Of a stretch of 64,000 bases of DNA, positions 14,399 to 62,045 are shown in pieces. The translations under genes and the position numbers were made by a program. The stretch lies in assembly GCF_963921235.1 (NCBI RefSeq), contig NC_086112.1:45756001-45820000 (forward strand), in the 5' to 3' direction. The notes below the pieces were generated by a model. That model worked only from the letters and a program-made list of their open reading frames with translations. It searched no databases and was not told the DNA's origin. Each line of letters begins with the position of its first letter. Positions within the stretch are counted from its first letter, which is position 1. The DNA is from Mobula hypostoma (Eukaryota).

Positions 14399-15398
14399 AA
14401 GCCAGTGAACAATGAACTCAAACTGACTTGACTAATGTGACTCACTTTGACTCTATCAAACTCACTTGCAGTGGTCATGTGACTTAGCCACAGAGAAGAA
14501 GACAGCACCACTGCTGCACTTCTGCGGGTTTGTTTCCCATCAGTGCCATGGTGTTATGCCCCAAGGGAAAAAATATAATGTTTTCTCAGCACCTTCTCCC
14601 ACTGGCAGCGAACACTCAATTAACAACAATGGCTGATACAACAATGTTTCAGAAGTCATACCATAGCACACATAGTTTATAAAGTTATATGCACACTTAA
14701 TGTTTACTACATATAGTCAAACTGGAATTTTTCTGGACATGTTGTTTTGTCTATTAGTCCTGCATTTATTTTTAACACAGTAATTGCTGGGATCTCTCTA
14801 TAATTTTGATACTTCTCCCATCTGTTGCCTCCCAATGACAATAGTTTGAATATTCTCATAGGCGTATACTGTGCTGTAATTATTCACGGTTCAGAATCAC
14901 GAGATCATAGCAGTGTAAAAGCAATTTTGCTGATGTTAAGATGAAATGACTTGTATAGTAATTAAATAATGTAAACTTCGTTTACATTTTTGAGAACAAA
15001 AAATCACTTTAATCATGAAAGTATGCTTGACAACTATCAGTGCATTCTGGCTTTGCTTCGGCTGTGTCTGTTTATTCCTTGACATTTATACTCATAATTG
15101 CACATTGTTTAGATTGTCCAAAGACTCAGGACAGTGAGCATAAACAGTTAAACAAGCAAGAAAGGCCTACAAAAAGAGCAAATCAAGGGCAGTTGGAACA
15201 CTGTCTTCAAACTAATGTGTGTACAGACTGGTTCTTTAAAAAAAGCATTCAACCATGTGTTATTAATATTCCATTCTCCTTCATTTGCTATTGTATGAAA
15301 AGTAAAAGTAACAGAAATTTTAACACTTCAGGACATGTGATTTGTATATAACCACATTCCTTTAAACATTGCTCCAAAAACAAATAATTTCTTATGTA

Positions 15399-15529
15399 TT
15401 TATTTTTAAGCTTTGTATTTAAATAGAGGACTAAAAAAAAGTTTATTTTTAAGCTTTGTATTTAAATATAGAGGATTAAAAAAAATTTATTTTTAAGCTT
15501 TGTATTTAAATATAGAGGATTAAAAAAAA
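15399..15529 (+). repeat. ~44-bp AT-rich tandem repeat, 3 copies
   Basis: TTTATTTTTAAGCTTTGTATTTAAATA(TA)GAGGA(C/T)TAAAAAAAA repeated. Confidence 0.9.
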
Positions 15530-16704
15530 TTGTTATACAAGGCTGACCCTGAATGGATTCTCCCAAGGATGAATTGTATTGAAGGCTGAGCTAAGGCAGC
15601 AGTGCTGTAGATCTACGATGCTTGAGTTTTTGACCTCTTACTGGAATTTCCAAACATGACCCCTTTCAATGGTGTTTCTAAACCTCGTCTAATCAGAGAA
15701 AGTAACTGAGAGATAAACTAGCTCGAGATAAACATCTCTTTGATTTTGGGCTCAGATCATTCAAATAAACAGCAAAGGGCTAATGAAATGGTTTTGGCAT
15801 AAAGTGGAGTAAGAATGCAAAAGATGGAATGTGCCAGTGAAGAGTTTTGTAGGATACTAACCTGCTATCATGAAATTGTTGGTACATGATGTGTGAGATG
15901 CAAGGTGCAAGTGTAATGACTCCGAATATGGAGAGAAATAGATGAGTTGAAAGACAGTAATTGTAGGAAAGAGATGGGATAGAGAAATATTGGAAGCAGT
16001 AAGGTTGGAAGATTAGGAGGAGCATAAGAGGAGTGCACATTAGTTTGACAAACCAAGCAAAGGCACTGAACTTCTTTTGGGGGTTTGCAGCCATGTCTGG
16101 GAGTTAAGTTACTGCCCACCACAACAATCTGTCTCATGGCTACAACTCTTTCTGAAACTGATAAAGGCATAACTTCAAGAGTTTTTGACTAATGATTATC
16201 ACAGATAATACTAATATATAAGCCCATTTATGTAGCTTGCCTCAGTTCTTAAACATCTACAAGGATATTAATCAGACCACAAGAGATAAGCTAACTTATG
16301 CACATTTCTTTAGTATGATCATTAACCAGGTTACTGTATATTCCATTCATGTTTTTGAAAACTTATACTGTTAACTGATCTTACTTTTAACTATAAATAT
16401 ATATAATATACATAAAATGATTGGAATTGCAGCCAAAATTTATCATAATTATGAGGATTAAGAACCTGTTTTCTTTGAATTTTTATTTAATTATTTGAAA
16501 TCTGAGATTCTCTTCTTAATACGGTCCCCTTTATGCTTTGGTAACTAAAACTGAAAGTAATATCAAGACATGCCTTGAGCAGGGCAGAAACAGTTTTACC
16601 TGATACTTTCTATTTATATTGATCTAATGATATACCTGAGCTTTCTGTTCTTTTGTTTATTACTTTCTCACAATGATGGGTTTGCAATCACTAACAAAAC
16701 CCAA

Positions 16705-18379: not shown

Positions 18380-20347
18380 GGCATAGTAAAGAAGGCACAT
18401 AGATGTTAACCTTCATCAGCCAGAGCACAAAATATAAGAGCAGGGAAGCTGTAGTACAGTATTATAAAATATTGGTAAGGTTACATCTGGAATATTGTGC
18501 ACTTTTGGTCACCATAGGAGGGTGATTACTTTGGAGACAGTGTGGAAGAGATTTAGTAGGATACTACCTGGGATGCAGTGTCTCAGTCCCAAGGGAAGAC
18601 TGGATAAGTTGGGTTTGCTTTCCTTGGAGCAGAGGAGGCTGAAGGTGAACCCAAAAGAGGTGTACAGGTTTCCCCCACCATCCGAAGGTAGAGTGTTCCT
18701 ATGAAATGGTTCGTAAGCCAAAATGTCGTAAAGCGAAGAAGCAATTACCATTTATTTATATGGAAAATTTTGTGAGCATTCGTAGACCCAAAAATAACCT
18801 ACCAAATCATGCCAAATAACACACAAAACCTAAAATAACAGTAACAAATAGTAAAAGCAGGAATGAATGATAAATACACAGCCTATATAAAGTAGAAATA
18901 CTTCTCTACAACGATTGCCTGCACAGATCTCCATAGCAAAAATCTCACGCAAGCGCTCTCCGCAGAAAATCTCACGCAAGCGTTATTGGCAAAAACACTC
19001 ACTCCAGTAACTTTTAAACTATGAAGCTGCCAAATCTACCAAATAACATGTAAAAATACACAGCCTATATAAAGTAGAAATAATGTATGTACAGTGTAGT
19101 ATCACCTACCAGAATCGGGAAAACAGCTTGCCGTGCACACTGATGATGGTGTGTTAGACTGAGTCGGCGCAGGTTGGGGTGGTACAGTGGCCCCCACCCT
19201 CCAGGCCGTCGACTGAAACATTGCCGCGAAGAACGCAGCGGTAGCCGGGAGGCACACAGCACATCTTTAAGAAAAAAGCCGAAGTAAACATGCTAATTAA
19301 TTAGGTGCTGCCCGGCATGTAAATGTCGGCGCAGATCAGTGCCGATTGCATCGCCTCTCATCTGGGCCGAAATTACGTGTCGGCGGCACCTAATTAAATA
19401 GCATGTTTATTTCGGCTTTTTTCTTAAAGATGTGCTGTGTGCCTCCCGCCTACTGCTGCATTCTCCGCGAATCGGTACAGTATCTGTCCGGGGCCCGGGG
19501 GTTGGATGGTGGGACACGGGGGTGTCACCTCATCCATTGCTTCACTTTCGCTACTGCATTCGGTTTCAATGGTTATCCTTTCCTCTTCCAATTGCATCAG
19601 CTCTTCATCTATCAGTTCTTCGTCATGGGATGCCAAAAGCTCTTCAACATCATCTTCGTCAGCTTCCACAAGCCAAAATCACTTTGTCCTTGCTTCGTTC
19701 ACCATGATCAAAATGCTTAATTATGTCTAGTTTTACACTGAGTGTAACACCCTTACGAGCTCTTTCAGGCTTTTCCAACACCTTAGGACTCATCTTGCTA
19801 ACAACTGCTCAATGCAACGTGTTTAAGTAATGCCGTTCCGAATCTGGGGCAGAGCGGCTGCTCGGGGTGCGCACTGCCTTTTCTCGCGTGCTATTTTTTC
19901 ACACACTGATTTTTAATCGCGCGCTGCCTTTCTTTGTAACAGTGAAAACACCTTCTGAAAGCGAAAACAGGGTACTAATGTAGGTCTTTCGTAACAGTGA
20001 GGTTTTGTAAAGTGAATGTTTGAAAAGCGGGGGACAGCTGTATAAAATTATGAAGGGTATAGATAGTAGTAAATTTAAACTTTTTGTCATAAACTTAACC
20101 ATGGAGCAGAGGTATCCATGGCCTGAGGGTATCAGTTTAAAGTAAGAAATAAGAGGTATAGAGGAAATGGAAGGAAGTTTTTTTTTCCACACAAAGAGTG
20201 GTTGGAATTTGGAATGCACTGCCTGGGAGAATGGTGGAGGAAGAGACTATCACAACATTTAAGAACTGTCTATATGAGCACTCGAATTAACAAGGTAGAG
20301 AAGGCTATGGAACAAGTGTTGGTAAATGGGATTACATTGGCTTGAGA
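18380..20347 (+). mobile_element. CR1 LINE 3' fragment split by a Tigger insertion at TA 18663-18664
   Basis: RLDKLGLLSLEQRRLK..EVY|KIMKGID is continuous across the transposon. Confidence 0.8.
18665..20040 (-). mobile_element. Non-autonomous Tigger/pogo DNA transposon (internally deleted)
   Basis: TA|CAGGTTTCCCC ... GGGGACAGCTG|TA termini with TA TSD. Minus-strand transposase N-terminus (MSPKVLEKPERARKGVTLSVKLDIIKHFDHGE) is joined to the acidic C-terminus (DVEELLASHDEELIDEELMQLEEE). Confidence 0.88.
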
Positions 20348-27416: not shown

Positions 27417-27927
27417 TGTTAGACAGTATTCTGGAGTTTTGTGAATATAACAGACATTAATTCAAATAAGAACCAGGCTTCAGTTCTTATTGTAAATGTA
27501 AATTCAGGAAACTTGCAATTAGCCTTCGGTTTTTTTCATAAATTGCAAGCAGTAAATTGAAGTTAAAAGCACAGGCTGCTCCACAGACAATGAGACTGCA
27601 TAAACAAGAGCCAAACATTAAAACAATGGAATTGTGTTATTGGCTTGCATCAAACCAGACAGTATGGCTAAGTTATTTGCAGTATTGTGACTTGAGAGCT
27701 AGCTGGTAGGCCAGATGGATGTTGTCATTTAGCACATCAAACATGGTCACAGGTATAGGCAATCAATAATTTTTGTGTACATGTCATATTTGTGCACTCA
27801 GAGACCCTGACAACATTAATTTTGGGTATCTGGCTCTCTGTTGTCAAAAGATTTTAGAATATTTGTGTTAACTAGTTTCTCTGAAAGGTGTTTGGACCTT
27901 CAGAGGTGTCGTTAATTGCAATGTGCT

Positions 27928-28160
27928 TGTGGTAAACCATATATATATGTTGTAACTGGGTTACCTGTCTGGACACGCCCCTCTGCTGACTACTCCTGTG
28001 GCTCCTCCCACAGAACCCTGAATAAAGGCGATTGCGCCATTGCTCCTCCTCTTAGTCCAGGGTAGATACTCAGCATGGTGGAGGTCACATTTTACTGCTA
28101 ATAAAAGCCTTTCAGTATTTACTCTGCTTCTAGTCTTTTGGAGTTATTGATGGTGCATCA
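27928..28160 (+). mobile_element. Solo LTR (probably Gypsy-type) nested in the ERV 5' LTR
   Basis: TGTGG...GCATCA termini; AATAAA; TSD GTGCT/GTGTT. Confidence 0.75.
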
Positions 28161-28227
28161 GTGTTTCCACTGATCAAAGGAATTATTCGTCAACCCGAAA
28201 TATTGAAGTAAACAATGTCATTGTTAC

Positions 28228-28363
28228 GCAAACAACAGGAATTCTGCAGATGCTGGAAATTCAAGCAACATACATCAAAGTTGCTGGTGAACGCAGCAGG
28301 CCAAGCAGCATCTATAGGAAGAGGCGCAGTCGACGTTTCAGGCCGAGACCCTTCGTCAGGACT
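28228..28363 (-). mobile_element. Penelope pLTR terminal fragment with hammerhead motif
   Basis: Near-identical to 59921-60057; minus strand reads AGTC-CTGACGA-AGG..CCT-GAAA-CGTC-GACT. Confidence 0.92.
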
Positions 28364-28376
28364 CCATGGTGGATAC

Positions 28377-29233
28377 TATACACGCACCTCTCTGGCATCC
28401 TTATGGTCAGTAACCACCTTTCGCAACTGGAGGCCCTGCTACTCAAAACTGTCTTATAGCTGGTCTCTTACACTAACACACATGCACCACACTTTTATAT
28501 GGCCCAGTTCAGCTTTCCACCATGTTCTTTGATACTTTGTGATCCCATGGTCATTGACCTGAACAGATCTAAGCATGGGGAGCCACTCTTAAAAATACTC
28601 ACTCCTTTAGACTGCTGAAGTCACTGGCCACACAGAGGGTCATGAATATATCCCAGACGAGTCTCCAGTGAACAAAGTCACTGGAGAGATATTGAATCTG
28701 GTGATATAGAAGTTTTTATTCAGCACAACAAGCAAGTATTCTTATGGTGACTCTCTCGGTAGAGTCCCACAAACCCAAAAATACATCACATTTTTATACC
28801 CTTAACGTCAAAGGTAACAATGATTGTATTTTTGGGTTTGTGGGACTCTACCGAGAGAGTCTCCATAAGAATACTTGCTTGTTGTGCTGAATAAAAACTT
28901 CTATATCACCAGATTCAATATCTCTCCAGTGACTTTGTTCACTGGAGACTCGTCTGGGATATATTCATGACCCTCTGTGTGGCCAGTGACTTCAGCAGTC
29001 TAAAGGAGTGAGTATTTTTAAGAGTGGCTCCCTATGCTTAGATCTGTTCAGGTCAATGACCATGGGATCACAAAGTATCAAAGAACATGGTGGAAAGCTG
29101 AACTGGGCCATATAAAAGTGTGGTGCATGTGTGTTAGTGTAAGAGACCAGCTATAAGACAGTTTTGAGTAGCAGGGCCTCCAGTTGCGAAAGGTGGTTAC
29201 TGACCATAAGGATGCCAGAGAGGTGCGTGTATA
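28377..29233. repeat. Long near-perfect inverted repeat: arms 28377-28785 and 28825-29233 (409 bp each), 39-bp spacer
   Basis: The arms are reverse complements; I saw only about 2 mismatches by eye. Confidence 0.97.
28943..28960 (+). promoter_or_regulatory. Primer-binding site, tRNA-Pro-like
   Basis: TGGAGACTCGTCTGGGAT vs canonical Pro PBS TGGGGGCTCGTCCGGGAT (15/18), directly after the LTR end. Confidence 0.75.
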
Positions 29234-29509
29234 CTCATTTGGGGGAATTGCATAATAGCATACATGTTTGTGAGTGTATTTGTGTGTTTTAGAATAAGGA
29301 ATACAACAGGCATCATGAGTTCAACAGCATATAAGCAGAAGATTGCAGAGTACTTACTCTGGTTTTAAATATCTACTGTTTAATTTTTATCCATCCTTTA
29401 TATTTTGCTTAGTATGGGAATTAGTGTGGAGATAATTTAGGGAGAGGACATACCCAGGTGGGTCTGTTGGGATGGCACCTGTAGAGGTTAGACAACATCA
29501 GATTGAGAA

Positions 29510-29650
29510 TCATAAGACCATAAGGAGCAGAATTAGGCCATTTGGCCCATCGAGTCTGCTCCGCCATTTCATCATGACTGATCTATTTCCCTTTCAGCCC
29601 CAATCTCCCATCTTCTCCCCGTACCCCTTCGTGCCCTGACTAGTCAAGAA
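29510..29650 (-). mobile_element. CR1 3' tail inserted in ERV gag
   Basis: CATAAGACCATAAG tail; similar to 56600-56760. Confidence 0.85.
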
Positions 29651-30133
29651 ATCCTGATGACCCCAAGCCAGCCCTTGACACTGATTACTACCATTCAGAA
29701 ACCCTTCACCCCCAGGGAGAAGCAAAGCATTTTGTCTGAGCTGCCCTCACTCTATTTCGCTTGTGGGAACTCAGAGTTCTGGCGTAAACTCAAAGAGATG
29801 ACTGGAATTCACCGGGTGCACCTCAAAGATATACACGTGTTGGTTAAGGTGAAATGCCCGAGGAATATGTGGGATAGTATGGCACAGGGAGTGCCGGATG
29901 GACATAGGCAATACTGGGAATGCCAGCAACAAGGAGAGATATTACTTTGGTAAAGGGGAAGTTGGGATGGCACCTGCAGAAGTTAGATAACATCAGGTTG
30001 AGAATCATAAGACCATAAGATCATAAGGAGCAGAATTAGGTCATTTGGCCCATTGAGTCTGCTCTGCCATTTCATCAGGACTGATCCATTGCCCTCTCAT
30101 CCTCAATCTCCCACCTTCTCCCCCTATCCCTTT

Positions 30134-31504
30134 AACTGATTTAATCAATGACATTTATGAGACTGGAATAATACTAGAAGAGATGAAAAAATCAGTATTT
30201 ATCACTCTTCCTAAGAAACCTGCAGCAATAGAATGTGAATTACATGGGACCATAAGTTTAATGAGTCATATCACCAAGATACTTCTAAGAATTTTGATGA
30301 CAAGAGCTAAAAGTAAGATACAAGCTGAAATAAGTAAAGAACAATGTGGTTTTGTGAAAGACAAAGGTACAAGAAACGCAATATTGATAGTAAGGATACT
30401 ATCAGAACAAGCTATTCAAGTGCAAAAAGATTTGTTTGTTTTATCGACTACACAAAAGCATTTGATAAAGTGAAGCACAATAAGTTAGTTGAAATATTAC
30501 AAAAAACTCTAGATCTAGATTCAAAAGACCTCTGCCCAATCAGAAATCTGTACTGAGAACAAGCTGCTGCTGTAAGAATAGAGAAGTGAGTCAGTTTACG
30601 AAAATCAAGGGAGGCGTTAGACAAGGGTGCATTTTCTCCCCTGATTTATTTAATGTGTACAGTGAAACAATATTACAAAAAATAAGAGACATCTTGGGAA
30701 TCAAAGTTGTCAGTGAAAACATCAATAATTTCAGATACGCAGATGACACTGTGTTAATTGCAAATATGGAGGAAGAACTACAAAACTTAATTGATATAGT
30801 TGTTGAAGAAAGTGCAAAAATGGGTTTATCTATCAATTGCAAAAAGACAGAATGTATGGTGATATCCAAAAAGAAGGAGAATCCTATCTGCAGGCTGAAA
30901 ATAAATGGGTAAGACATAAAACAAGTACAGAAATTTTGCTACTTAGGGAGCTGGGTGACATCAGATGGCAGGTGCGACATGGACATCAAAAGAAGAATAG
31001 GGATGGCAAAAGACACCTTTACGAGAACGAAGAGTATACTGACCAATAGTAAACTAGGCATGACAACCCGCCTCAGTGTACTGAAATGTTACATTTATCC
31101 AGTTATGTTATATGGCTCAGAATGTTGGACAATGTCAAGTAACATGAGGAAACGAATTGTAGCAGCATAGATGTGGTTTTTGAGGAGGATGCAAAGAATA
31201 TCATGGATGAAACTAATATCTAATGAGGATGTCATGAACAGAGCAAACACAAAAAGAGAAATAATGTATGAGATCATGAAAAGACAACGTAACTTTATTG
31301 GACATGTGATTAGGAAAGAGGAATTAGAATGCACGGTAATTATGGGAAAGATTGAAGGGAAGAAAGTAAGAGGAAGACGAAGACAAATGATGATGGAGAC
31401 AACAGCCAGAGAACTGGAAATGTATACCAATGAATTGACCCGAAACAGGAGTGTGTTGGCCATGGCAGTCAAAGCTCAAACTGGGCATGGCACCTGATGA
31501 TGAT
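30134..31504 (+). mobile_element. 5'-truncated RTE-clade LINE
   Basis: FIDYTKAFDKV, GVRQGCIFSPDLFN, YADD, YGSECWT, MWFLRRMQRISW; (TGA)n tail. Confidence 0.95.
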
Positions 31505-32675
31505 GGTGAAAGGGGAAGCGTGGCAGTGACTAGGGAACGGTAACGTCAGTGGTTCAGAGAGCTGATGAGCCAGTCATGGATTATGCAGAGCGTAAATATC
31601 AAGCGTATGAGGAGTATTCAGGGTTGGGCAATTCAGGAAGGGACAACCCAGTCTTCCTAAAAATGTTGAAGGAGGGCATGAGCTCAGCCCACCAAGAAGT
31701 TTTAGATTTGGCGACAGCAGTGGCATCAACCTACTCCACAAAAGTATCATGGGCCAGGGGGGTAGACTAGAGAAACGGGAAGAGAAGTTATTAAGTGGCA
31801 GAGTGGATGTATCTGTTGTGACATCACAGAGGACTTGCTTTGTGTGCCAACAACTAGGGCACCTAGCAAGGAATTGCCGGAATAGACATGGAAGGGGAAA
31901 GGAGCTGATTTGATATATCCGTGGCCTCTCAGGCCATGGTTGGAGGCAGGGTCCTGGTAAGGGAGGAATTTGTGAGAATCACTCACCAAAACAGGCAGAA
32001 ACCACAGCGATGCCCTTTCAGTCTGATCTGACTGCCAACCAGATCTAAGGCAGCTTCTAGGTCAGACAAATAGCTGATGGCAGCCTCCATTGCAAGTGCT
32101 GGTCTCCCACATATGTACACAAAAGGTTTGATAGGGAGCTGGCAATGCCATATTTTTTGGATACGGGGTCTTCAGTCTCAATAACTGATCTACCTGTGCC
32201 CATGGCTGGAGAGGTGACTTATATTACCAGTGCAGGGGGTGAAATGAGAGCAGAGGGAAGTGAGCCTCAGGTAGTCAGGAAGTGCAGCTTCCTGCAGATT
32301 TCTGGGTGCGGACAAACAATGAGGGTGCTACCCTGGGGATAGAATATTTGCATTGATTAATTTCTCCTAAAGCCCTTTGGAGCTTTAGAAGTGTCTTGAC
32401 ATTTACAATGGGCTTCTACTATGTATGCCAAAGGAACCATTTATCACCCCAGAGTATTGAAGGAAAACAATGCCATTGTAACTGCTGAAATTGTATTGAA
32501 TCACCTGCTGTTCCCTTTGATCTTAAAGGTGTAAAAGTGTGATGTGCCTTTGGGTTTGTGAGCCTCTGCTGAGAGGGTCCCCAGAAGGACGCCTGGTTGT
32601 TGTGCTGAATAAAAGCTTCCATATCACCAGTTTCAGTATTTCTCCGGTGACTTTGTTCACAGTCACAACAGGCAT

Positions 32676-37391: not shown

Positions 37392-38155
37392 CCCTTTCTC
37401 TCTCTATATCTATTTTGATCCCTTTCTTTTTCTTTCTCATGTTCCTTCTCTCTTTCACACCATTTTCCTTCACTATCTTGTACATCTTGATCCTGGGAAG
37501 GTGTATTTAGTTCAAAAAGCATCGAGTACTTTTCTGGCATACTTGATGAATAAACTCCTCTCAGGCATCAAGCGGGTACACACCAACGTTTCGATGACAA
37601 AGAAGAAGATGGCAGAGTTTGTCATCGAAACATCAGTTATAATCAGTACCTGTACTTGGCTTTAAGTCTGAGAAGAGTTTACTCATTGCATTTAGTTCAC
37701 TGAAGTATTCTCTTATTAATCCCTGTATTGCTAACTTTATGATCTGATCTTTCCCCTTAGTTCCCTCATTCACAACATCATTTAATGAAGCCTGTTTTTG
37801 TATCTCCATTGACTGCTTTCTTTTTGTCCTTCTATTCATCCAGCTGCGCTTTGGTCTTTGAATCTACTTTTACAAGCAGCTTTTTGCCTTCTACTTGAAC
37901 AACCTTAATGCATTCAATGTAGACTCTGGTTCTTTATACTCACAAAAGCTGAATACTTGCAACTTTCCTGAAGCTCCTTGAATTCTCTTCCAGCTTAAAA
38001 CCAAGCCACAGTTTGCAAGTAACTGCCTGATTAACATATCAGAAACTTTCTCAGAAATGTTGCCTACAAAAACTTCCATGTTTTCTCTGAGCAACGTCGT
38101 CCTTCCTTGGTCCAATATACTTTCCAACCAGAGCCACAGAGGCTGGTACCAATGC
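37392..38155 (-). pseudogene. RBM25: Processed (intronless), disrupted fragment of RNA-binding motif protein 25 (RRM through RE-rich region)
   Basis: ALVPASVALVGKYIGPRKD; VFVGNISEKVSDMLIRQLLANCGLVLSWKRIQGASGKLQVFSFCEYKEPESTLNALRL; KKLLVKVDSKTKAQLDE; IREYFSELN|TPSQD; EREKEHEKEKERD. All match my recollection of vertebrate RBM25. Frameshifts and deletions are present. Confidence 0.93.
37515..37686. mobile_element. Fold-back Penelope-type mini-insertion (second family) inside the RBM25 copy
   Basis: 13-bp TSD TG(T/C)ATTTAGTTCA (37502-14 / 37687-99); inverted arms; partial hammerhead core GAAGA-A-GATGGCA..TGTCATC-GAAAC. Confidence 0.7.
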
Positions 38156-39621
38156 CTGTTAGTCTTCTGTCGGGCAGTGATTCCTGGTGCTTGGCATGGT
38201 GATTGTGTTTGGCATGGCCAGTTGTGGCATCATCCAGCCCCTTTCTGAATTTGCTCTCAGTTGGCTTTGTTGCAGGAAATGTGGCATGCAAATGGTGGAT
38301 AGATCGCTGATCAAGTTGTAGTTGTCTCAGCCACTCATGTCTCCACAATGCTGGATCTTCTGTTTTTACCACATAAAGCCCAATTTAGATTGTTGGTTGT
38401 TGCATTTCACAGCCACATATGTCATTCCCACAGGAGTTAACTTTTCTCCAGTATAAGATTTTAGTTTGAAATGCCATTCAAACTCACTTTGTGGAATGAC
38501 TGAAACAGCTGAATCAGTGTCTAATTCCATTTAAACCAATTTGCCGTTCAATTCTGACATAAGCCATATTGCTTGTCTATTGTTAATTTTCACACTGTTA
38601 ATCTCAAGACTACACAATCCTGCATCACCCTCATCATTGTCAGATTTTTCATTTTCAGCATGCAGATTAGTGCTCTTTTTGAAACTGCAACTTGACATTT
38701 TAACTTCTTTTCTTCCCTGAGCAGTCCATTTATTTTTGTCTGCCTGACATGTTCTTTGTATATATCCTACTTTGTTGAATTTTCTGCAAATCTGCATTGG
38801 TCTGGTGTATGTGAGCCCCTGTCACAATAGAAAAATAGTTGGTTTGGCTAGGCAGGTTTCTGTTTAGACATTGCAATTTTGTTCACACTCACTTACGTTC
38901 CTGACTGCAACTCAATTGTGTCTCTGTCTGTGGTTTCCATTGAAACAGCGATTTCCACTGCTCATTTGAATGTAAACTGTGCTTCAGTTAGGAGCTGTTT
39001 GTGAATGTTTTCTTTTAAGATTCCACAACCTAAGCAATTTCTCCATGTATCATTAAGCTCGTTACCAATCTGACGATGCTCAGCCAATCTCTTCAATACA
39101 GCCATGTACACTGAAATGGATACACTTAAATTGACTCACTTTCCTTTTGATTCTGCTTATGAAACCTAAAGCATTCTGCAATCAACAATGGCTTTAGTTC
39201 TAAATGTTCCTCATTACCATTACAATAGCAGCAAATCTCATTTCTGATGGTTTGGTTGGAGCAGTCCAACTTCAAAGCAAACTCCATGCCTATAAACCCA
39301 ATGAACTCAGCATAATTGGCACTTGCTTCTTGTTGTTTGTTTCATTTACTTCAATATACTGTTCCAATAGCTCAGTGCCAATTACCCATTGTATAATCAA
39401 ACACATTAATCTTTCCGATGTATCCAGTCTTTTCTGATTTTTTAAATGATTATAGTCACCCAGTACTCACTCTTAATGAATCCTGAATTCTTCCATTTTT
39501 TGGGTTTTCTTAAAAAACACTCATGCTGTTCTATTTCAACATTGCTCTTGCTGTGTTTTATTTTATTTCAAACATCTCACTGCAGCAGGTCAGTAGTCAC
39601 ATGGGGCTCGTTTTAAAATTA

Positions 39622-48492: not shown

Positions 48493-50117
48493 TATATCAC
48501 ACATTCCCTCTTGTTGTTCCAGAAGTATCCAATCCCTCAGTGGCTCTTAACGTACATGGTAGAGAAAAGTCAGGAGCTTACAGTGACATAGGTTCAGCTA
48601 CCCCCTTCCCTCATAACACGCATTTCAAAACAGACCTTCGTTGCTGTCCTTTGTCCACCATCTATTCACACTTAGTTGCAATGTGTCCATCTCCAAGTGG
48701 ATCCCAATAGAGATCTCACCTGAAAAACAGTGAGGAGTTGGGGTGGGTGTTGAGTTGTGGGTACCTTATTTGGCCTGCATGAATTTTCTTCTGGGACCTC
48801 CCACTCAATATTATACTACTGAACCTGAAGGCTCTGCAAGTGATGAAAGACCTGAAGAGGAAATTAGTGTTATGATGTTTTAAGTGATCACACCTCACCA
48901 TTTACGTCAAGTCAACACAAGTGAATGGGGACATCATATATTTAATTAGGTCATCAGCTAGCTGTGAGGCTGAAACCCTGCTAGACGAGGCCACTGATGT
49001 CCAGGCCTAATCTCCAGCGGAACCTCCTTTTCTACAGTCTCTTCTGCATGGAAAAAGGAAGACCTCTGAGTGAGGCAGAGAGTAAATGATATGTGTTGAA
49101 TGGACAGATTTGTGAGGGGGTTCATGAGGAAAAGGCATAGCATTGCGTGGAAGGTAAACACCAAAGTTCAAAGTAAAATTTATTATCAGAGTTCATGCAC
49201 GTCACCACATACAACCCTGCGATTATTTTTCTGCGGGCGTACTGGATAACGGCATGGTGGTTGGATAGAAGAGGAATATGAGGGGTGGAGGGGGATGGAA
49301 GTAACTACAGAGTAAGTTGGATTTGAACAGCAATGTGCTGCAGGAAATTTGGGAAGATGGAGGATAGAGATAATATGCTTCTCAGGTGAATGTGCCATGA
49401 TATTCAACCTTTCTGCCTTGCTTAACCTATGAAATCGCTTTTTTACCATTGAATCCATGGGTATAGTTTCATGTTTCTGTTGCTAACTTTACCAGTAACC
49501 ACCAGCTGCTATTTCCTTGCAAAAGCTTACTGTCCTTGGCATTTCAGTGAGAATGGGTGCTACTAAAATAAGGCAGAATCCTTGAAATTCCAGTTCCTTT
49601 CTGCAATTCCTCATTGTTCTTACACTACTAAAATCTGTTGTAATTGATGCTAGAGATGAAATGAAGTTCTTCTTATGCTTACTATTTCCGTTTCCTTTGG
49701 CAGTCACTTGAGATCAAAGATGACTTGCTCTCGCTTCTTTACTGAGTAGAGGTAGGTGACCTTGCATGGATAGTTTTTTATGTGGGGTGATTGTTGTATA
49801 ACAGCTACCTCAATGAATTATCAGAGTGAGACTTAGGTCCAATGAGCAGAAGGATCCCAGACAACTGGAGACCAGGTCCTACTGCAGAGACTTTGCGTTC
49901 ATATGTACACCCAGAAAGGAACACACACAAAAAAATGAACACTGACATAGTGGCATTATAATTTAGTCAGGAAAAAGCAATTTCAATTTAAACAGCATTT
50001 TGGCTCAGCAAAATGTTCCCGTGTATCACATGAGATTTTATAATTAAGAGTGGATGCTAAGGCACATGGGGATTTATTACGGCAGATGATTTAAAGAGGT
50101 TAGGCTTCAACAAGTAC

Positions 50118-50337
50118 AGGCCAGGAGGCATCTATGAAAAAGAGCAAACAGTCGATGTTCTGGGCTGAGACCCTTCATCAGGACTCCTGGTGAGTACTCC
50201 AGTCCTGATGAAGTATCTCAGACCGAAACGTTGACCGTTTGCTTTTTTCTATAGATGCTGCCTGGCCTGCCGAGTTCCTCCAGCATTTTGTGTGTGTTGC
50301 TTTGAATTTTCAGCATCTGCAGATTTTCTTGTGTTTG
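50118..50337. mobile_element. Fold-back Penelope mini-insertion with hammerhead motifs on both strands
   Basis: TSD T(T)A(G/A)GCTTCAACAAGT; CTTCATCAGGACT..AGTCCTGATGAAG inverted cores. Confidence 0.85.
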
Positions 50338-52344: not shown

Positions 52345-54005
52345 CTGATTAGGGACAGTACGTTTGAGGATGAGTAGGTTGTGTTTCACAAGCCATGCTG
52401 AATTATTCATGGAGGCGATGAAACAAATTGATGAAGTTAGAGAAGTCAATGTGATCTATATGGATTTTAGTAAGGCGTTAGACAAGGTTCCCCATGGTAA
52501 GCTCATTCATGAAGCCAGGAGACATGGGGTCCTGGGAAACTAAGCTGCATGGATTTGGAATTAGCTTGCCCATAGAAGCAGGGGCTGGTCGTAAATGGAG
52601 TGTATTCTGCCTGGAGGCCAGTGTTCTGCAGGGATCCACTCTGAGACCCCTGCTCTTTGTGATTTTTATAAATAATTTAGAAGAGGAAGAAAAGAGTGGG
52701 TTAAAAACGTAAACATGAGGAATTCTGCAGATGCTGGAAATTCAAGCAAAACACATCAAAGTTGCTGGTGAACGCAGCAGGCCAGGCAGGATCTCTAGGA
52801 AGAGGTACAGTCGACGTTTCAGGCTGAGACCCTTCGTCAGGACTAACTGAAGGAAGAGTTAGTAAAAGATTTGAAAGTGGGAGGAGGAGGGGGAGATCCA
52901 AAATGATAGGAGAAGACAGGAGGGGGAGGGATGGAGCCAAGAGCTGGACAGGTGATGGCAAAGGGGATATGAGAAGATCATGGGACCCCTTCCATCCCTC
53001 CCCCTCCTGTCTCCTCCTATCATTTTGGATCTCCCCCTCCTCCTCCCACTTTCAAATCTCTTACTAGCTCTTCCTTCAGTTAGTCCTGACGAAGGGTCTC
53101 GGCCGGAAACGTCGACTATACCTCTTCCTAGAGATGCTGCCTGGCCTGCTGCGTTCACCAGCAACCTTGATGTATGTTGTTCAAAGAGTGGGTTAGTAAG
53201 TTTCCAAATGACAGGAAAGTTGTTGGTGTTGTGGATAGCTGTCGTAGGTTATAATCAGACACTAATCGGATGTGGAGCAGAGAAGAGGCAGATGGAGTTC
53301 AATTCAGAAAATTGTGAAGTGATACACTTTTGAAAGATGAATTTTAAAGCAGAGTGCAGTGTTAATGGCTGGATTCTTAGCAGTGCGGAGGAACAGAGGG
53401 ATCTTGGGGTCCACGTCCGTAGATCCTCAAAGTTGCTGCGTGTTAAGAAGGTGCATGGTGTGTTTGTCTTTGTTTAGTCATGGGATTGATTTCAAGAGCT
53501 ATGAGGTAATGTAGCAACTCTATAAAACTCTGGATATACCACACTCTGATTATTGTGGTCACTTCATTATAGGAAGGATGTGGAAGTTTTAGAAAGGCTG
53601 CAGAGGAGATTTACCAGGATGCTGCCTCATGAGGAGAGGTTGAGTGAGCTAAAGGTTTACTCTTTGGAGCAAAGGAGAGTGAGAGGTGATTCAAAGGAGG
53701 GTAAGAGGCATAGGTAGAATGGATAGCCAACATCTATTTCCCAGGGCAGCAATGGGGAATACGAGAGGGCATAATTTTAAGGTGATTGGAGGAAAGTATA
53801 GGGGGTTGTCAGAGGTAGGACTTTACACAGAGAGGTGTAGGTGCATGGAACATGCTGCCAGGAGTGCTGGTAGAGGCAGATACATTAAGGACATATAAGA
53901 AACTCTTATATTGGCACATGGATAAAAAAAAAATGGAGGGCAATGTGGGAGAAACGAGTTAGATTGACCTGGAAGCAGGATAATAGTTCAGCAAAACATT
54001 GTGAG
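52345..54005 (+). mobile_element. Decayed CR1 LINE interrupted by a Penelope fold-back
   Basis: YMDFSKALDKVPH, QGSTLRPLLFVIFINNL, MEFNSENCEVIHF, TRGHNFKVIGG. Confidence 0.85.
52704..53182. mobile_element. Fold-back Penelope pLTR pair
   Basis: 13-bp TSD AAAGAGTGGGTTA; ~190-bp inverted arms, each with a CTGACGA..GAAAC hammerhead core. Confidence 0.92.
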
Positions 54006-58484: not shown

Positions 58485-60181
58485 ATCGAGAGTAATTGGA
58501 AGAAATTTGAGTGCACTTCACGTTGAGTTTTAATTTTGCAAAAAATCAGTACAGAGCTAAATAAATTCCTGTTTATTTTTTAATCTTTCTTTTCCGACAA
58601 CATCAAAGACAGAGAAAGTTCCTGCTTGGTGTGATCAGAAGCTAAATCTAAGCAGAAGGTTTAGACCAGTTTTTCCTCTGTATTTTCTGAATACTACTTG
58701 GAGGAAGAGGAAACTTAGCCTAATTGTCTGTAAGGTGGATCTCTAGCCCCATTCCTTCTATTCCCTGATATTTCAAATTTTGTGAATGCATCCTTTTAAT
58801 GTTATGTAACTCCAATCCTTTAATATCTGGAAAATTCATTCATGTACCCAATCAAAGAGCTTAATTAATTTTCAAAAATCCACAAAAATATTACCAAACT
58901 ATACCTCCTTTCTATTTCTCCAATTCCTCTCCACCACTCTAGTAACTTCAACCCCAGCTTCATATTTTGCCAGCATTAAGGATTGGACCTTTGCCCACAG
59001 TAGTTTGGGGACAAACTAATTTATCTGGAGATCCATATAAAATAAATGAAAGGAAGCCTGAGGACTTTAATGCTCCCTTCATAGTGTTTCAGCATTGTTC
59101 TGGTGGTGCAGTGGTTTTCATGATTCCAAAATTAAATACTGATACCATTTTCATTAACTGGAAAACGTGGTCCCTAAGTTAATGCAGTGATGACTGCATT
59201 GTTAACAAGTTAAAACTAGAGGAAGTCAACTGGCTAAAAGTTCTTTAAACATTCCAAAATGTTTGATTTGTTGAAACAAATGGCCAACAAAACATGTCAT
59301 GATTACTTACAGAGAGATACACATTGAAACAGTTTCTTCATCTCACAGTCTTACCAAATGCCTATTTATACTAATCCTACCCTAACCCATGTTATTCTCC
59401 CTACATTACTATCATCTAAAAAGAATGCAATGAGAATACACCAATTTCTTATTCACAGCTTAGAATTCTATAGTATTCACTCAAAATGGAAAGTTTCAGT
59501 GTCAATAACAGATACAAATCTGTAGACACCCATCTTCTAGGTGCGTAAGGCAAACAGAGTGAGAGGAAGGAAGGAAAAGCTGCAAATCACAAAAGTAATT
59601 AAAGAATTAAAAAAGAGGAACCAGCATTAATATATGGGAAAATTTTAACTGCATTGAATGACAACTGGCATTCATGATGGGGATGCAATGAGAAGTCTAA
59701 TCTATTTTAATAGCTCGGCTTCATCATCAAGTTATTCATTTAATTAAGACCTCCTTGACACTTTTGAACAAATATTTAATCACAACAACTTGCATATATA
59801 AAATAAATGCCCCAATATGCTTTACAGGATTACACTCATAGGAACAACTAACATTGATTCACATAAATGAGATGAAAGAATAGGTGACCAAAAGCCTAAC
59901 CAAACAAGACTTTTCAAGGACGCAAACAACAGGAATTCTGCAGATGCTGGAAATTCAAGCAACACACATAAAAGTTGCTGGTGAACGCAGCAGGCCAGGC
60001 AGCTTCTCTAGGAAGAGGTGCAGTCGATGTTTCAGGCCGAGACCCTTCGTCAGGACTAACTGAAGGAAGAGTGAGTAAGGGGTTTGAAAGTTGGAGGGGG
60101 AGGAAGTGGGAGGAGCCAAAGGAGAAATTATTAAGAGTAAGGACTAATTCCGCTAGACGGAGCAGAGTGGTGGTAGAGGGG

Positions 60182-61471
60182 AATTCCAGACCTAATCAGT
60201 TCCCCTCTACCACCACTCTGCTCCGTCTAGCGGAATTAGTCCTTACTCTTAATAATTTCTCCTTTGGCTCCTCCCACTTCCTCCAAACTAAAGGTGTAGC
60301 TATGGGCACCCGTATGGGTCCTAGCTATGCCTGCCTTTTTGTTGGCTTTGTGGAACAATCTATGTTCCGTGCCTATTCTGGTATCTGTCCCCCACTTTTC
60401 CTTCGCTACATCGACGACTGCATTGGCGCTGCTTCCTGCACGCAAGCAGAGCTCGTTGACTTTATTAACTTTGCCTCCAACTTTCACCCTGCCCTCAAGT
60501 TTACCTGGTCCATTTCCGACACCTCCCTCCCCTTTCTAGATCTTTCTGTCTCTGTCTCTGGAGACAGCTTATCCACTGATGTCTACTATAAGCCTATGGA
60601 CTCTCATAGCTATCTGGACTATTCCTCTTCTCACCCTGTCTCTTGCAAAAACGCCATCCCCTTCTTGCAATTCTTCCATCTCTGCCGCATCTGCTCTCAG
60701 GATGAGGCTTTTCATTCTAGGACGAGGGAGATGTCTTCCTTTTTTAAAGAAAGGGGCTTCCCTTCCTCCACTATCAACACTACTCTTAAACGCATCTCCC
60801 CCATTTCACGTACATCTGCTCTCACTCCATCCTCCCGCCACCCCGCTAGGAATAGGGTTCCCCTGGTCCTCACCTACCACCCCACCAGCCTCCGGGTCCA
60901 AAATATTATTCTCCGTAACTTCCGCCACCTCCAACGGGATCCCACCACTAAGCACATCTTTCCCTCCGCCCCCCCCGCATTCCACAGGGATCACTCCCTA
61001 CGCAACTCCCTTGTCCATTTGTCCCCCCCATCCCTCCCCACTGATCTCCCTCCTGTCACTTATCCGTGTAAGCGGAACAAGTGCTACACATGCCCTTACA
61101 CTTCCTCCCTTACCACCATTCAGGGCCCCAAACAGTCCTTCCAGGTGAGGCAACACTTCACCTGTGAGTCGGCTGGGGTGATATACTGCGTCCGGTGCTC
61201 CCGATGTGGCCTTTTATATATTGGCGAGACCCGACGCAGATTGGGAGACCGCTTTGCTGAACACCTACGCTCTGTCCGCCAGAGAAAGCAGGATCTCCCA
61301 GTGGCCACACATTTTAATTCCACCTCCCATTCCCATTCTGACATGTCTATCCACGGCCTCCTCTACTGTAAAGATGAAGCCACACTCAGGTTGGAGGAAC
61401 AACACCTTATATTCCGTCTGGGTAGCCTCCAACCTGATGGCATGAACATCGACTTCTCTAATTTCCGCTAA
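60182..61471 (+). CDS. Uninterrupted 3' part of the Penelope RT + GIY-YIG endonuclease ORF (5'-truncated)
   Basis: About 430 stop-free codons with RT core and GIY-YIG motifs; the N-terminal ~70 aa of the predicted 498-aa ORF are antisense junk. Confidence 0.8.
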   Translation, partial: NSRPNQFPSTTTLLRLAELVLTLNNFSFGSSHFLQTKGVAMGTRMGPSYACLFVGFVEQSMFRAYSGICPPLFLRYIDDCIGAASCTQAELVDFINFASNFHPALKFTWSISDTSLPFLDLSVSVSGDSLSTDVYYKPMDSHSYLDYSSSHPVSCKNAIPFLQFFHLCRICSQDEAFHSRTREMSSFFKERGFPSSTINTTLKRISPISRTSALTPSSRHPARNRVPLVLTYHPTSLRVQNIILRNFRHLQRDPTTKHIFPSAPPAFHRDHSLRNSLVHLSPPSLPTDLPPVTYPCKRNKCYTCPYTSSLTTIQGPKQSFQVRQHFTCESAGVIYCVRCSRCGLLYIGETRRRLGDRFAEHLRSVRQRKQDLPVATHFNSTSHSHSDMSIHGLLYCKDEATLRLEEQHLIFRLGSLQPDGMNIDFSNFR

Positions 61472-61764
61472 TGCCCCACCTCCCCCTCGTACCCCATCTT
61501 TTACTTATTTTTATACACACATTCTTTCTCTCACTCTCCTTTTTCTCCCTCTGTCCCTCTGACTATACCCCTTGCCCATCCTCTGGGTCCTCCCCCACTT
61601 GTCTTTCTTCCCGGACCTCCTGTCCCATGATCCTCTCATATCCCCTTTTGCCTATCACCTGTCCAGCTCTTGGCTCCATCCCTCCCCCTCCTGTCTTCTT
61701 CTATCATTTTGCATCTCCCCCTCCCCCTCCAGCTTTCAAATCCCTTACTCACTCTTCCTTCGTT

Positions 61765-61800
61765 AGTCCTGACGAAGGGTCTCGGCCTGAAACGTCGACT
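61765..61800 (+). ncRNA. Minimal type I hammerhead ribozyme in the Penelope pLTR
   Basis: AGTC-CTGACGA-AGG(GTCTCGG)CCT-GAAA-CGTC^GACT: stem I AGTC/GACT, stem II AGG/CCT, palindromic ACGT stem III. Confidence 0.85.
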
Positions 61801-62045
61801 GTACCTCTTCCTAGAGATGCTGCCTGGCCTGCTGCATTAACCAGCAACTTTTACGTGTGTTGCAAGAGTTTTCAAGGAGCACCTTAAAGAAAGCAAGCGA
61901 TGCAGAGAGATTTAGTCTGGGAACTTCAGAATTTGCTGCTTAGGAGCTGAAAGCAAAGCCATCAGGAAGAGGGATGTAGGAGATCAGGATTGAACAATGG
62001 AGCTTAATTGTAGGAACTTGACAATTCTCAGAGAGATGGAGAAAA

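Follow-up and report, generated by a model that had tools for sequence, protein, structure and literature searches.

Architecture of the locus

The stretch of DNA analysed here, which we call the window, comprises 64,000 nucleotides of Mobula hypostoma contig NC_086112.1. Comparison of the window with itself revealed a palindrome of 857 bp in total, in which two 409-nt arms flank a 39-nt spacer (Table 1). The arms are complementary at 407 of 409 positions (99.5%), the mismatched pairs being 28577/29033 and 28748/28862, and their outer ends are sharp: complementarity stops at both. A chance origin of an arm pair of this length and identity is far out of reach. On the plus strand, the order of features is the upstream LTR of a host element, the target 10-mer (X), a pLTR piece from a Penelope-like element (PLE), the filler, the inverted arm, an inverted segment of the spacer (part B), the inverted second copy of the 10-mer, one base, and the forward arm. 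The two copies of the 10-mer match at all ten positions, and then the match ends; the last 2 nt of the first copy (28218-28227) are compatible with the Penelope element end too. Part B starts with TCA (28786-28788), the complement of the TGA at 28821-28823.

Table 1. Features of the palindrome locus and of the LTR element in which it lies (positions in the window)
Feature	Position	Strand	Remark
Upstream LTR, left part (left end not fixed)	27855..27927	+	43/56 identical to 32340-32395
Older solo LTR of another family, inside upstream LTR	27928..28160	.	TG...CA ends
Upstream LTR, U3-like, before target site	28161..28217	+	28175-28227 vs downstream LTR 42/54
Target 10-mer X, left copy of target-site duplication (TSD), putative cDNA primer end	28218..28227	+	Reverse complement of 28814-28823; single copy in organism B
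136-nt 3' end of Penelope-like pLTR, truncated at hammerhead stem I start	28228..28363	-	92-95% to two pLTR ends
Filler joining cDNA and inverted arm	28364..28376	.	Missing from other pLTR copies
Left arm: inverted LTR R/U5-like part, PBS-like site, leader	28377..28785	-	407/409 complementary to right arm
Spacer part B: 28 single-copy nt with TATA-like word, inverted	28786..28813	-	
Inverted second copy of X (TSD), TGA at end	28814..28823	-	
Single extra base, fold junction	28824	+	Mismatches base preceding X
Right arm: forward LTR remainder, PBS-like site (~28943-28960), leader, on into element	28825..29233	+	
Downstream LTR copy of host element	32340..32660	+	77-84% identical; ~32 extra nt between X-like and B-like parts

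Much of this anatomy had been described in the earlier note, which was made from the sequence alone, and our measurements agree with it: a near-perfect 857-bp palindrome with arms about 99% identical; an inverted copy that runs back to the reverse complement of the sequence at the insertion point (the exact 10-mer); a forward copy that lacks about 30 bp including the TATA box, these being kept in the spacer (28 nt as measured, and inverted); a minus-strand Penelope pLTR end; a filler of about 13 bp (exactly 13 nt); and two LTR copies far more diverged than the arms (125/152 identical, or 82%, over the best-aligned piece). Two of its statements on the host element need qualification. The LTRs that it assigned to an ERV are indeed paired, but we could not confirm the ERV class, a gag-like zinc knuckle (zf-CCHC, E 4.4e-05) alone having scored; and the upstream LTR extends further left than had been stated, with homology from about 27855, and is interrupted by the solo LTR at about 27928-28160.

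Searches of Pfam, PDB and Atlas between the LTRs returned the zinc knuckle only, and no RT, integrase or env of the element's own. Its PBS-like site is presumably a primer-binding site, as judged from tRNA ends that we take to be its counterparts; a tRNA scan of the window gave 0 genes. The boundaries of the solo LTR are apparent in the contig comparison from loose ends of paralogues at 27928 and from several near-private differences, and by lying inside the upstream LTR it allows the locus to be identified in organism B, a related organism (see below). About 32 nt of the downstream LTR (32483-32514, between two similar hexamers) are missing from the upstream LTR both in the window and in organism B, so that this loss is older than the palindrome event. 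Inside the host element there is also a tandem duplication that includes a repeat fragment (29466-30132), and an RVT_1 match (E 5.9e-18; RT hit at 30142-31509) belongs to an inserted LINE-like piece at about 30140-31510. The outer arm end coincides with a 12-nt alternating purine-pyrimidine run (29223-29234); in cartilaginous fishes, structural-variant breakpoints are reported to be enriched in alternating purine-pyrimidine 5-mers (PMC13320814).

The Penelope fragment and the filler

The inserted piece is PLE pLTR sequence without poly-A, and it is 95% identical to 59920-60057 and 92% identical to 52707-52844, two other pLTR ends in the window. It contains a minimal hammerhead motif (28328-28363), the minus strand of which reads AGTC-CTGACGA-stem II-GAAA-CG-TC-GACT; as read from the sequence, this motif fits the minimal hammerhead described in PMC4209133, a ribozyme type of low activity for which a dimer is required. 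Rfam gave 0 matches in the window at gathering score, hammerhead included. A related PLE copy at 60200-61411 has one open frame, in which a GIY-YIG domain is matched with E 0.00032 and a score of 21.4 bits, short of the 22.6-bit cut-off; the profile search gave no RT family for this copy, and the frame contains motifs that we take to be those of an RT.

The filler has two 9-nt local matches, at 28074-28082 and 29086-29094, but scores this good were reached by 204 of 2000 and by 30 of 600 random fillers, so that templating from them is not significant. We considered whether the cDNA could have produced the filler by snapping back on the stem of its hammerhead, and rejected this source, since it does not reproduce the filler sequence; the fold of 28320-28370 is no better than that of shuffles (z +1.12). 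The filler also resembles 50186-50200, the spacer of an older head-to-head pLTR pair, a likeness that is likely to be chance.

PLE insertions elsewhere in the window

Four other PLE insertions in the window were tested, of which three are two-armed with direct TSDs of 16, 13 and 17 bp; the fourth has a 10-bp match only, away from the edge. In view of the 13-17-bp direct TSDs at three of these four, the 10-bp inverted duplication at the main locus is best read as the target-site duplication of the insertion there. Inverted pLTRs with TSDs of 8-10 bp are standard for PLEs (PMC3846280, PMC8557442), and a purified PLE protein is able, in vitro, to cut both strands and to extend them (PMC11167929). 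The palindrome locus has no second pLTR; its inverted partner is host DNA, and on the best reading a fold-back took the place of the second PLE arm. Seven close inverted repeats occur in the window: four consist of PLE sequence, two are unrelated, and one, the palindrome described here, is host DNA beside a pLTR.

A second PLE-linked snap-back was found in the window, this time on the element's own ORF, with perfect 85-bp arms (60099-60284). It lies within a two-armed PLE insertion (59920-61874, 16-bp TSD) in which a truncated ORF folds back before the inverted pLTR. The frame is open through the spacer of this snap-back, as a simple snap-back predicts, in contrast to the main locus. Head-to-head pLTR pairs are located at 52707-53179 (13-bp direct TSD) and 50117-50337 (17-bp). 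Two older, imperfect palindromes, 19225-19469 (86%) and 15398-15530 (72%), are 2272 and 1340 bp, respectively, from the nearest pLTR piece. Separately, a minus-strand frame at 37891-38226 contains an RRM domain (E 1.6e-07) and looks like a processed copy of a gene for an RNA-binding protein, which we take to be RBM25-like.

The empty site and contig support

Contigs from 4 of 23 runs were compared over 27600-28830, a span that takes in one palindrome arm; two runs derive from organism A (one sample) and two, X5 and X7, from organism B (again one sample). Sample S1 is a possible source of the window sequence itself. A 309-nt contig of organism B (X7 record 31) follows the plus strand over 28127-28217 and then passes directly to the minus strand, 28823 to 28606 (91 + 218 = 309). 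It thus reads through the 10-mer, then part B, then the arm, with neither the PLE piece nor the inversion, and because it crosses the solo-LTR junction it is locus-specific, not a free paralogue. X5 record 24 carries the corresponding piece (minus strand, 28823 to 28598), the first 83 letters of that contig being outside the pieces listed. Organism B therefore has an uninverted site free of the Penelope fragment and the duplication, and both arose after the split between A and B.

In organism A, the left junction is spanned by two contigs (X1 record 7 and X2 record 14) over 28136-28249 with 0 differences, just 22 letters of which are on the PLE side, below the 31-letter rule. At the arm difference 28577, organism A has G (X1 record 8) and A (X2 record 15); at 28748 it has T (X2 record 16) and A (X1 and X2), whereas organism B has A only. 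A joint between 28224 and 28805, present in all four runs, was considered as an empty allele in organism A and set aside; paralogous LTRs with extra letters fit it better.

Could the palindrome be an assembly or fold-back chimera artefact, the PLE insertion alone being real? Neither of the inner junctions, at the fold (28823/28825) and at the filler, is among the joints and pieces listed in the contig comparison. In addition, arm depth in organism A (11.1 and 10.2 in the bin 28440-28481, against 9-17 in flank contigs) is not clearly doubled, although such depth is no copy number, and each arm difference could reflect a pair of alleles. On the other hand, all four arm states occur in contigs with depths of about 9-18, like the flank contigs; an exact inverted 10-mer that matches the insertion point, together with a 13-nt filler, is unexpected from a chimera; and the window is free of any N. 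We consider an artefact very improbable, and the palindrome to be, with high probability, a real structure.

Evidence for a single, recent event

The arms differ at 2 of 409 positions, whereas the window and organism B differ at 9 of 309 (Fisher p 0.012). Within the pLTR fragment, the window allele at 28271 makes up 19-20% of depth in the two A runs and that at 28325 makes up 34%; the corresponding shares in the B runs are 3-4% and 2-4%; three more sites in the fragment shift weakly toward A-common alleles, and no change approaching a private one was found among the sites listed. Taken together, the arm divergence, the A-enriched alleles and the lack of a near-private site suggest that the fragment and the duplication are of one age and arose after A and B had split. 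Homogenisation of the arms could make them seem younger than their true age. In organism A the alleles of this pLTR fragment are frequent and in organism B they are rare, which suggests that the subfamily expanded after the two diverged.

These data also bear upon whether there was one event or two, namely, an ordinary break-repair fold-back with an independent PLE insertion beside it. The window is crowded with pLTR pieces (9 in 64 kb), and the target site (28208-28227) is a small quasi-palindrome, a 20-nt imperfect palindrome present also in the downstream LTR, which could be fragile; its fold, however, is no better than that of shuffles (z -1.36). Furthermore, just 0.4% of the window is within 13 nt outside a pLTR end, the pLTR fragment has no TSD of its own apart from the shared 10-mer, which is the only duplication, and both features are absent in organism B and equally young in appearance. 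We attach scarcely any probability to two independent events. The proposal in the earlier note of a single, recent event tied to a Penelope insertion is thus borne out by the empty site in B, by the 10-mer exactly at the insertion point, by the A-common alleles, and by the difference between 2/409 and 9/309.

A probable fold-back of the unprimed end

We propose that the locus probably records a single botched germline insertion by an endonuclease-bearing PLE, in which the unprimed cut end folded back and duplicated its own flank. The duplicated 10-mer suggests that the endonuclease would have cut the two strands about 10 nt apart around this sequence, leaving two 3' overhangs. The junction indicates that the left overhang, the 10-mer itself, served as primer for 136 nt of pLTR cDNA. 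In ordinary insertions of this PLE family, the right overhang would carry a second, head-to-head pLTR. Here, the right overhang, the complement of the 10-mer, ends in TGA and may instead have paired with the TCA that lies 28 nt inward on its own strand, exactly at the arm start. Such a TGA:TCA fold-back would loop out about 32 nt and gain one base before extension along the flank; the folded end, by then 409 bp deep, may have been end-joined to the cDNA through the 13 filler bases. The second snap-back in the window, at 60099-60284, speaks for this reading. Among its weak points are the 3-nt inverted match, which is common by chance, and the count of host-DNA palindromes, with one for nine pLTR pieces in the window.

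By our deduction, a simple snap-back would give a forward spacer and a direct TSD; at this locus both are reversed, which calls for an extra step beyond the published snap-back. We envisage three routes within the fold-back reading. The spacer was probably flipped at a later time, by recombination or template switching between the arms. Less likely, but still a fair contender among the three, a sealed hairpin may have been opened on the opposite strand, 409 bp from its tip, either through a nick or through replication followed by breakage. The third route, in which the palindrome is real and its centre was reversed during sequencing or assembly, seems improbable. The second route can be generalised: PLE integration might regularly seal the unprimed end as a hairpin, and a nick in the opposite strand, for which the element's GIY-YIG endonuclease is a candidate, would then let it unroll. 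Nick-and-unroll processing of a hairpin resembles parvoviral terminal resolution. We judge a regular process of this type to be doubtful.

The earlier note had preferred another mechanism, a template switch by Penelope RT or repair synthesis to flanking DNA. Spelled out, the cDNA 3' end (extended by the RT or a repair polymerase) would have moved to an intact copy of the locus (the sister chromatid, the homologue or a read-through RNA), copied 447 nt backwards through the cut site, and been rejoined to the right end with the loss of 28 nt. Such a switch would give the observed spacer orientation in one pass, the filler has its two 9-nt local matches, and a strand switch of L1 RT to a nearby pre-mRNA has been reported once (PMC10191854). 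Yet those filler matches are not significant, the cDNA joins the arm without homology, and copying across the cut site would be needed, which is no longer intact in the broken molecule; moreover, nothing explains why copying should end after a further 10 nt, a length in the TSD range of the PLE family. We do not retain the template switch as the best mechanism, and regard it as unlikely. The fold-back is favoured over it because the fold-back directly explains both the 10 nt and the 3-nt inverted match.

Comparison with known systems

The closest counterparts of the fold-back that we propose are L1 insertions. Two L1 cases have been described with inverted duplication of the reciprocal end, a retained TSD and 2-bp homology (bioRxiv 10.1101/2024.12.14.628481), and L1 fold-back is reported in four colon cases of 52-220 bp (PMC10191854). 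As in L1 inverted duplications, the primed break end carries the insertion and its partner carries inverted target DNA, with a TSD-like overlap and a 2-3-bp match at the fold, and the duplication spans no more than a few hundred bp. At our locus, the cDNA on the primed end and the inverted copy of the flank are both absent from the empty site; the overlap is 10 bp, and the fold shows a 3-bp match plus one extra base. In contrast to the L1 cases, the element is a GIY-YIG PLE, the event is inherited rather than somatic or experimental, and the arm measures 409 bp; and unlike the outcome that we deduce from the text for the L1 snap-back-and-ligate model, the spacer and the TSD copy are reversed. 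On this analysis, the palindrome appears to work like L1-associated inverted duplications without being a strict member of that group.

The locus also resembles head-to-head PLE insertions (PMC3846280, PMC8557442) in its pLTR end with tail, minimal hammerhead, 5' truncation and TSD of about 10 bp. The palindromes at inverted PLE junctions are interpreted as self-priming in those two sources. However, the inverted partner is element sequence in their cases and flanking host DNA in ours, where a second pLTR is lacking. We found no PLE with an inverted duplication of its own flank in the literature searched, to which subscription papers, supplements and figures could add a case; the available portions of PMC12910113 and PMC13320814 hold no PLE flank-duplication case. 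Nor did we find, in the literature searched, a description of an inverted TSD that marks host-DNA palindromes.

Fold-backs outside retroelements offer further parallels. Yeast fold-back at double-strand breaks, in one example with a 41-nt loop (PMC11724301), and human constitutional inverted duplications (PMC3907307) share with our locus the folding of a resected end on a short inverted match, a single-copy spacer that corresponds to the loop, and capture by end joining. They differ in that the break here was made by a retroelement and carries cDNA. Most arms in yeast are shorter than our 409 bp (5-34 bp, with some above 150), whereas the human ones greatly exceed it (PMC11724301, PMC3907307). 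Opening of a hairpin by replication and breakage has been put forward for human fold-back duplications (PMC3907307), and template switching from arm to arm reverses spacers, reversibly, in yeast (PMC8604942); the yeast repeats in the latter have arms of 10-16 bp and spacers of 2-5 bp, unlike the 409-bp arms and 39-nt spacer described here.

Implications for PLE biology

The palindrome is a neutral scar, with no function indicated. Extrusion of a cruciform is doubtful with a 39-nt spacer. The TATA-like word points into one arm only, so that a transcript started there would form no long hairpin; a hairpin RNA is conceivable solely under read-through transcription from outside. The predicted RNA fold of the whole palindrome, -824 kcal/mol, says nothing on transcription, and the spacer fold of -4.5 kcal/mol was equalled by 18 of 200 shuffles.

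The completion of PLE insertion and the origin of the inverted structures are stated to be unresolved in PMC8557442 and PMC11167929. What is new in our observations is a PLE case in an inherited genome, with a reversed centre; the L1-type inverted duplication of the reciprocal end was already known. With an empty site in a relative, this case indicates that the unprimed end of a PLE cut can be released and then undergo the kind of remodelling seen at L1 breaks, and the locus supports a staggered double-strand PLE cut in vivo. It also supplies a signature that can be counted: a pLTR end, a filler, an inverted flank, a TSD-sized overlap and the orientation of the spacer. So far this is a single scar, located in a defunct LTR element, and L1 offers a close precedent; if the regular sealing of hairpins were to prove true, PLEs would be a steady source of new host-DNA palindromes, each marked by an inverted TSD, in a genome rich in pLTRs.
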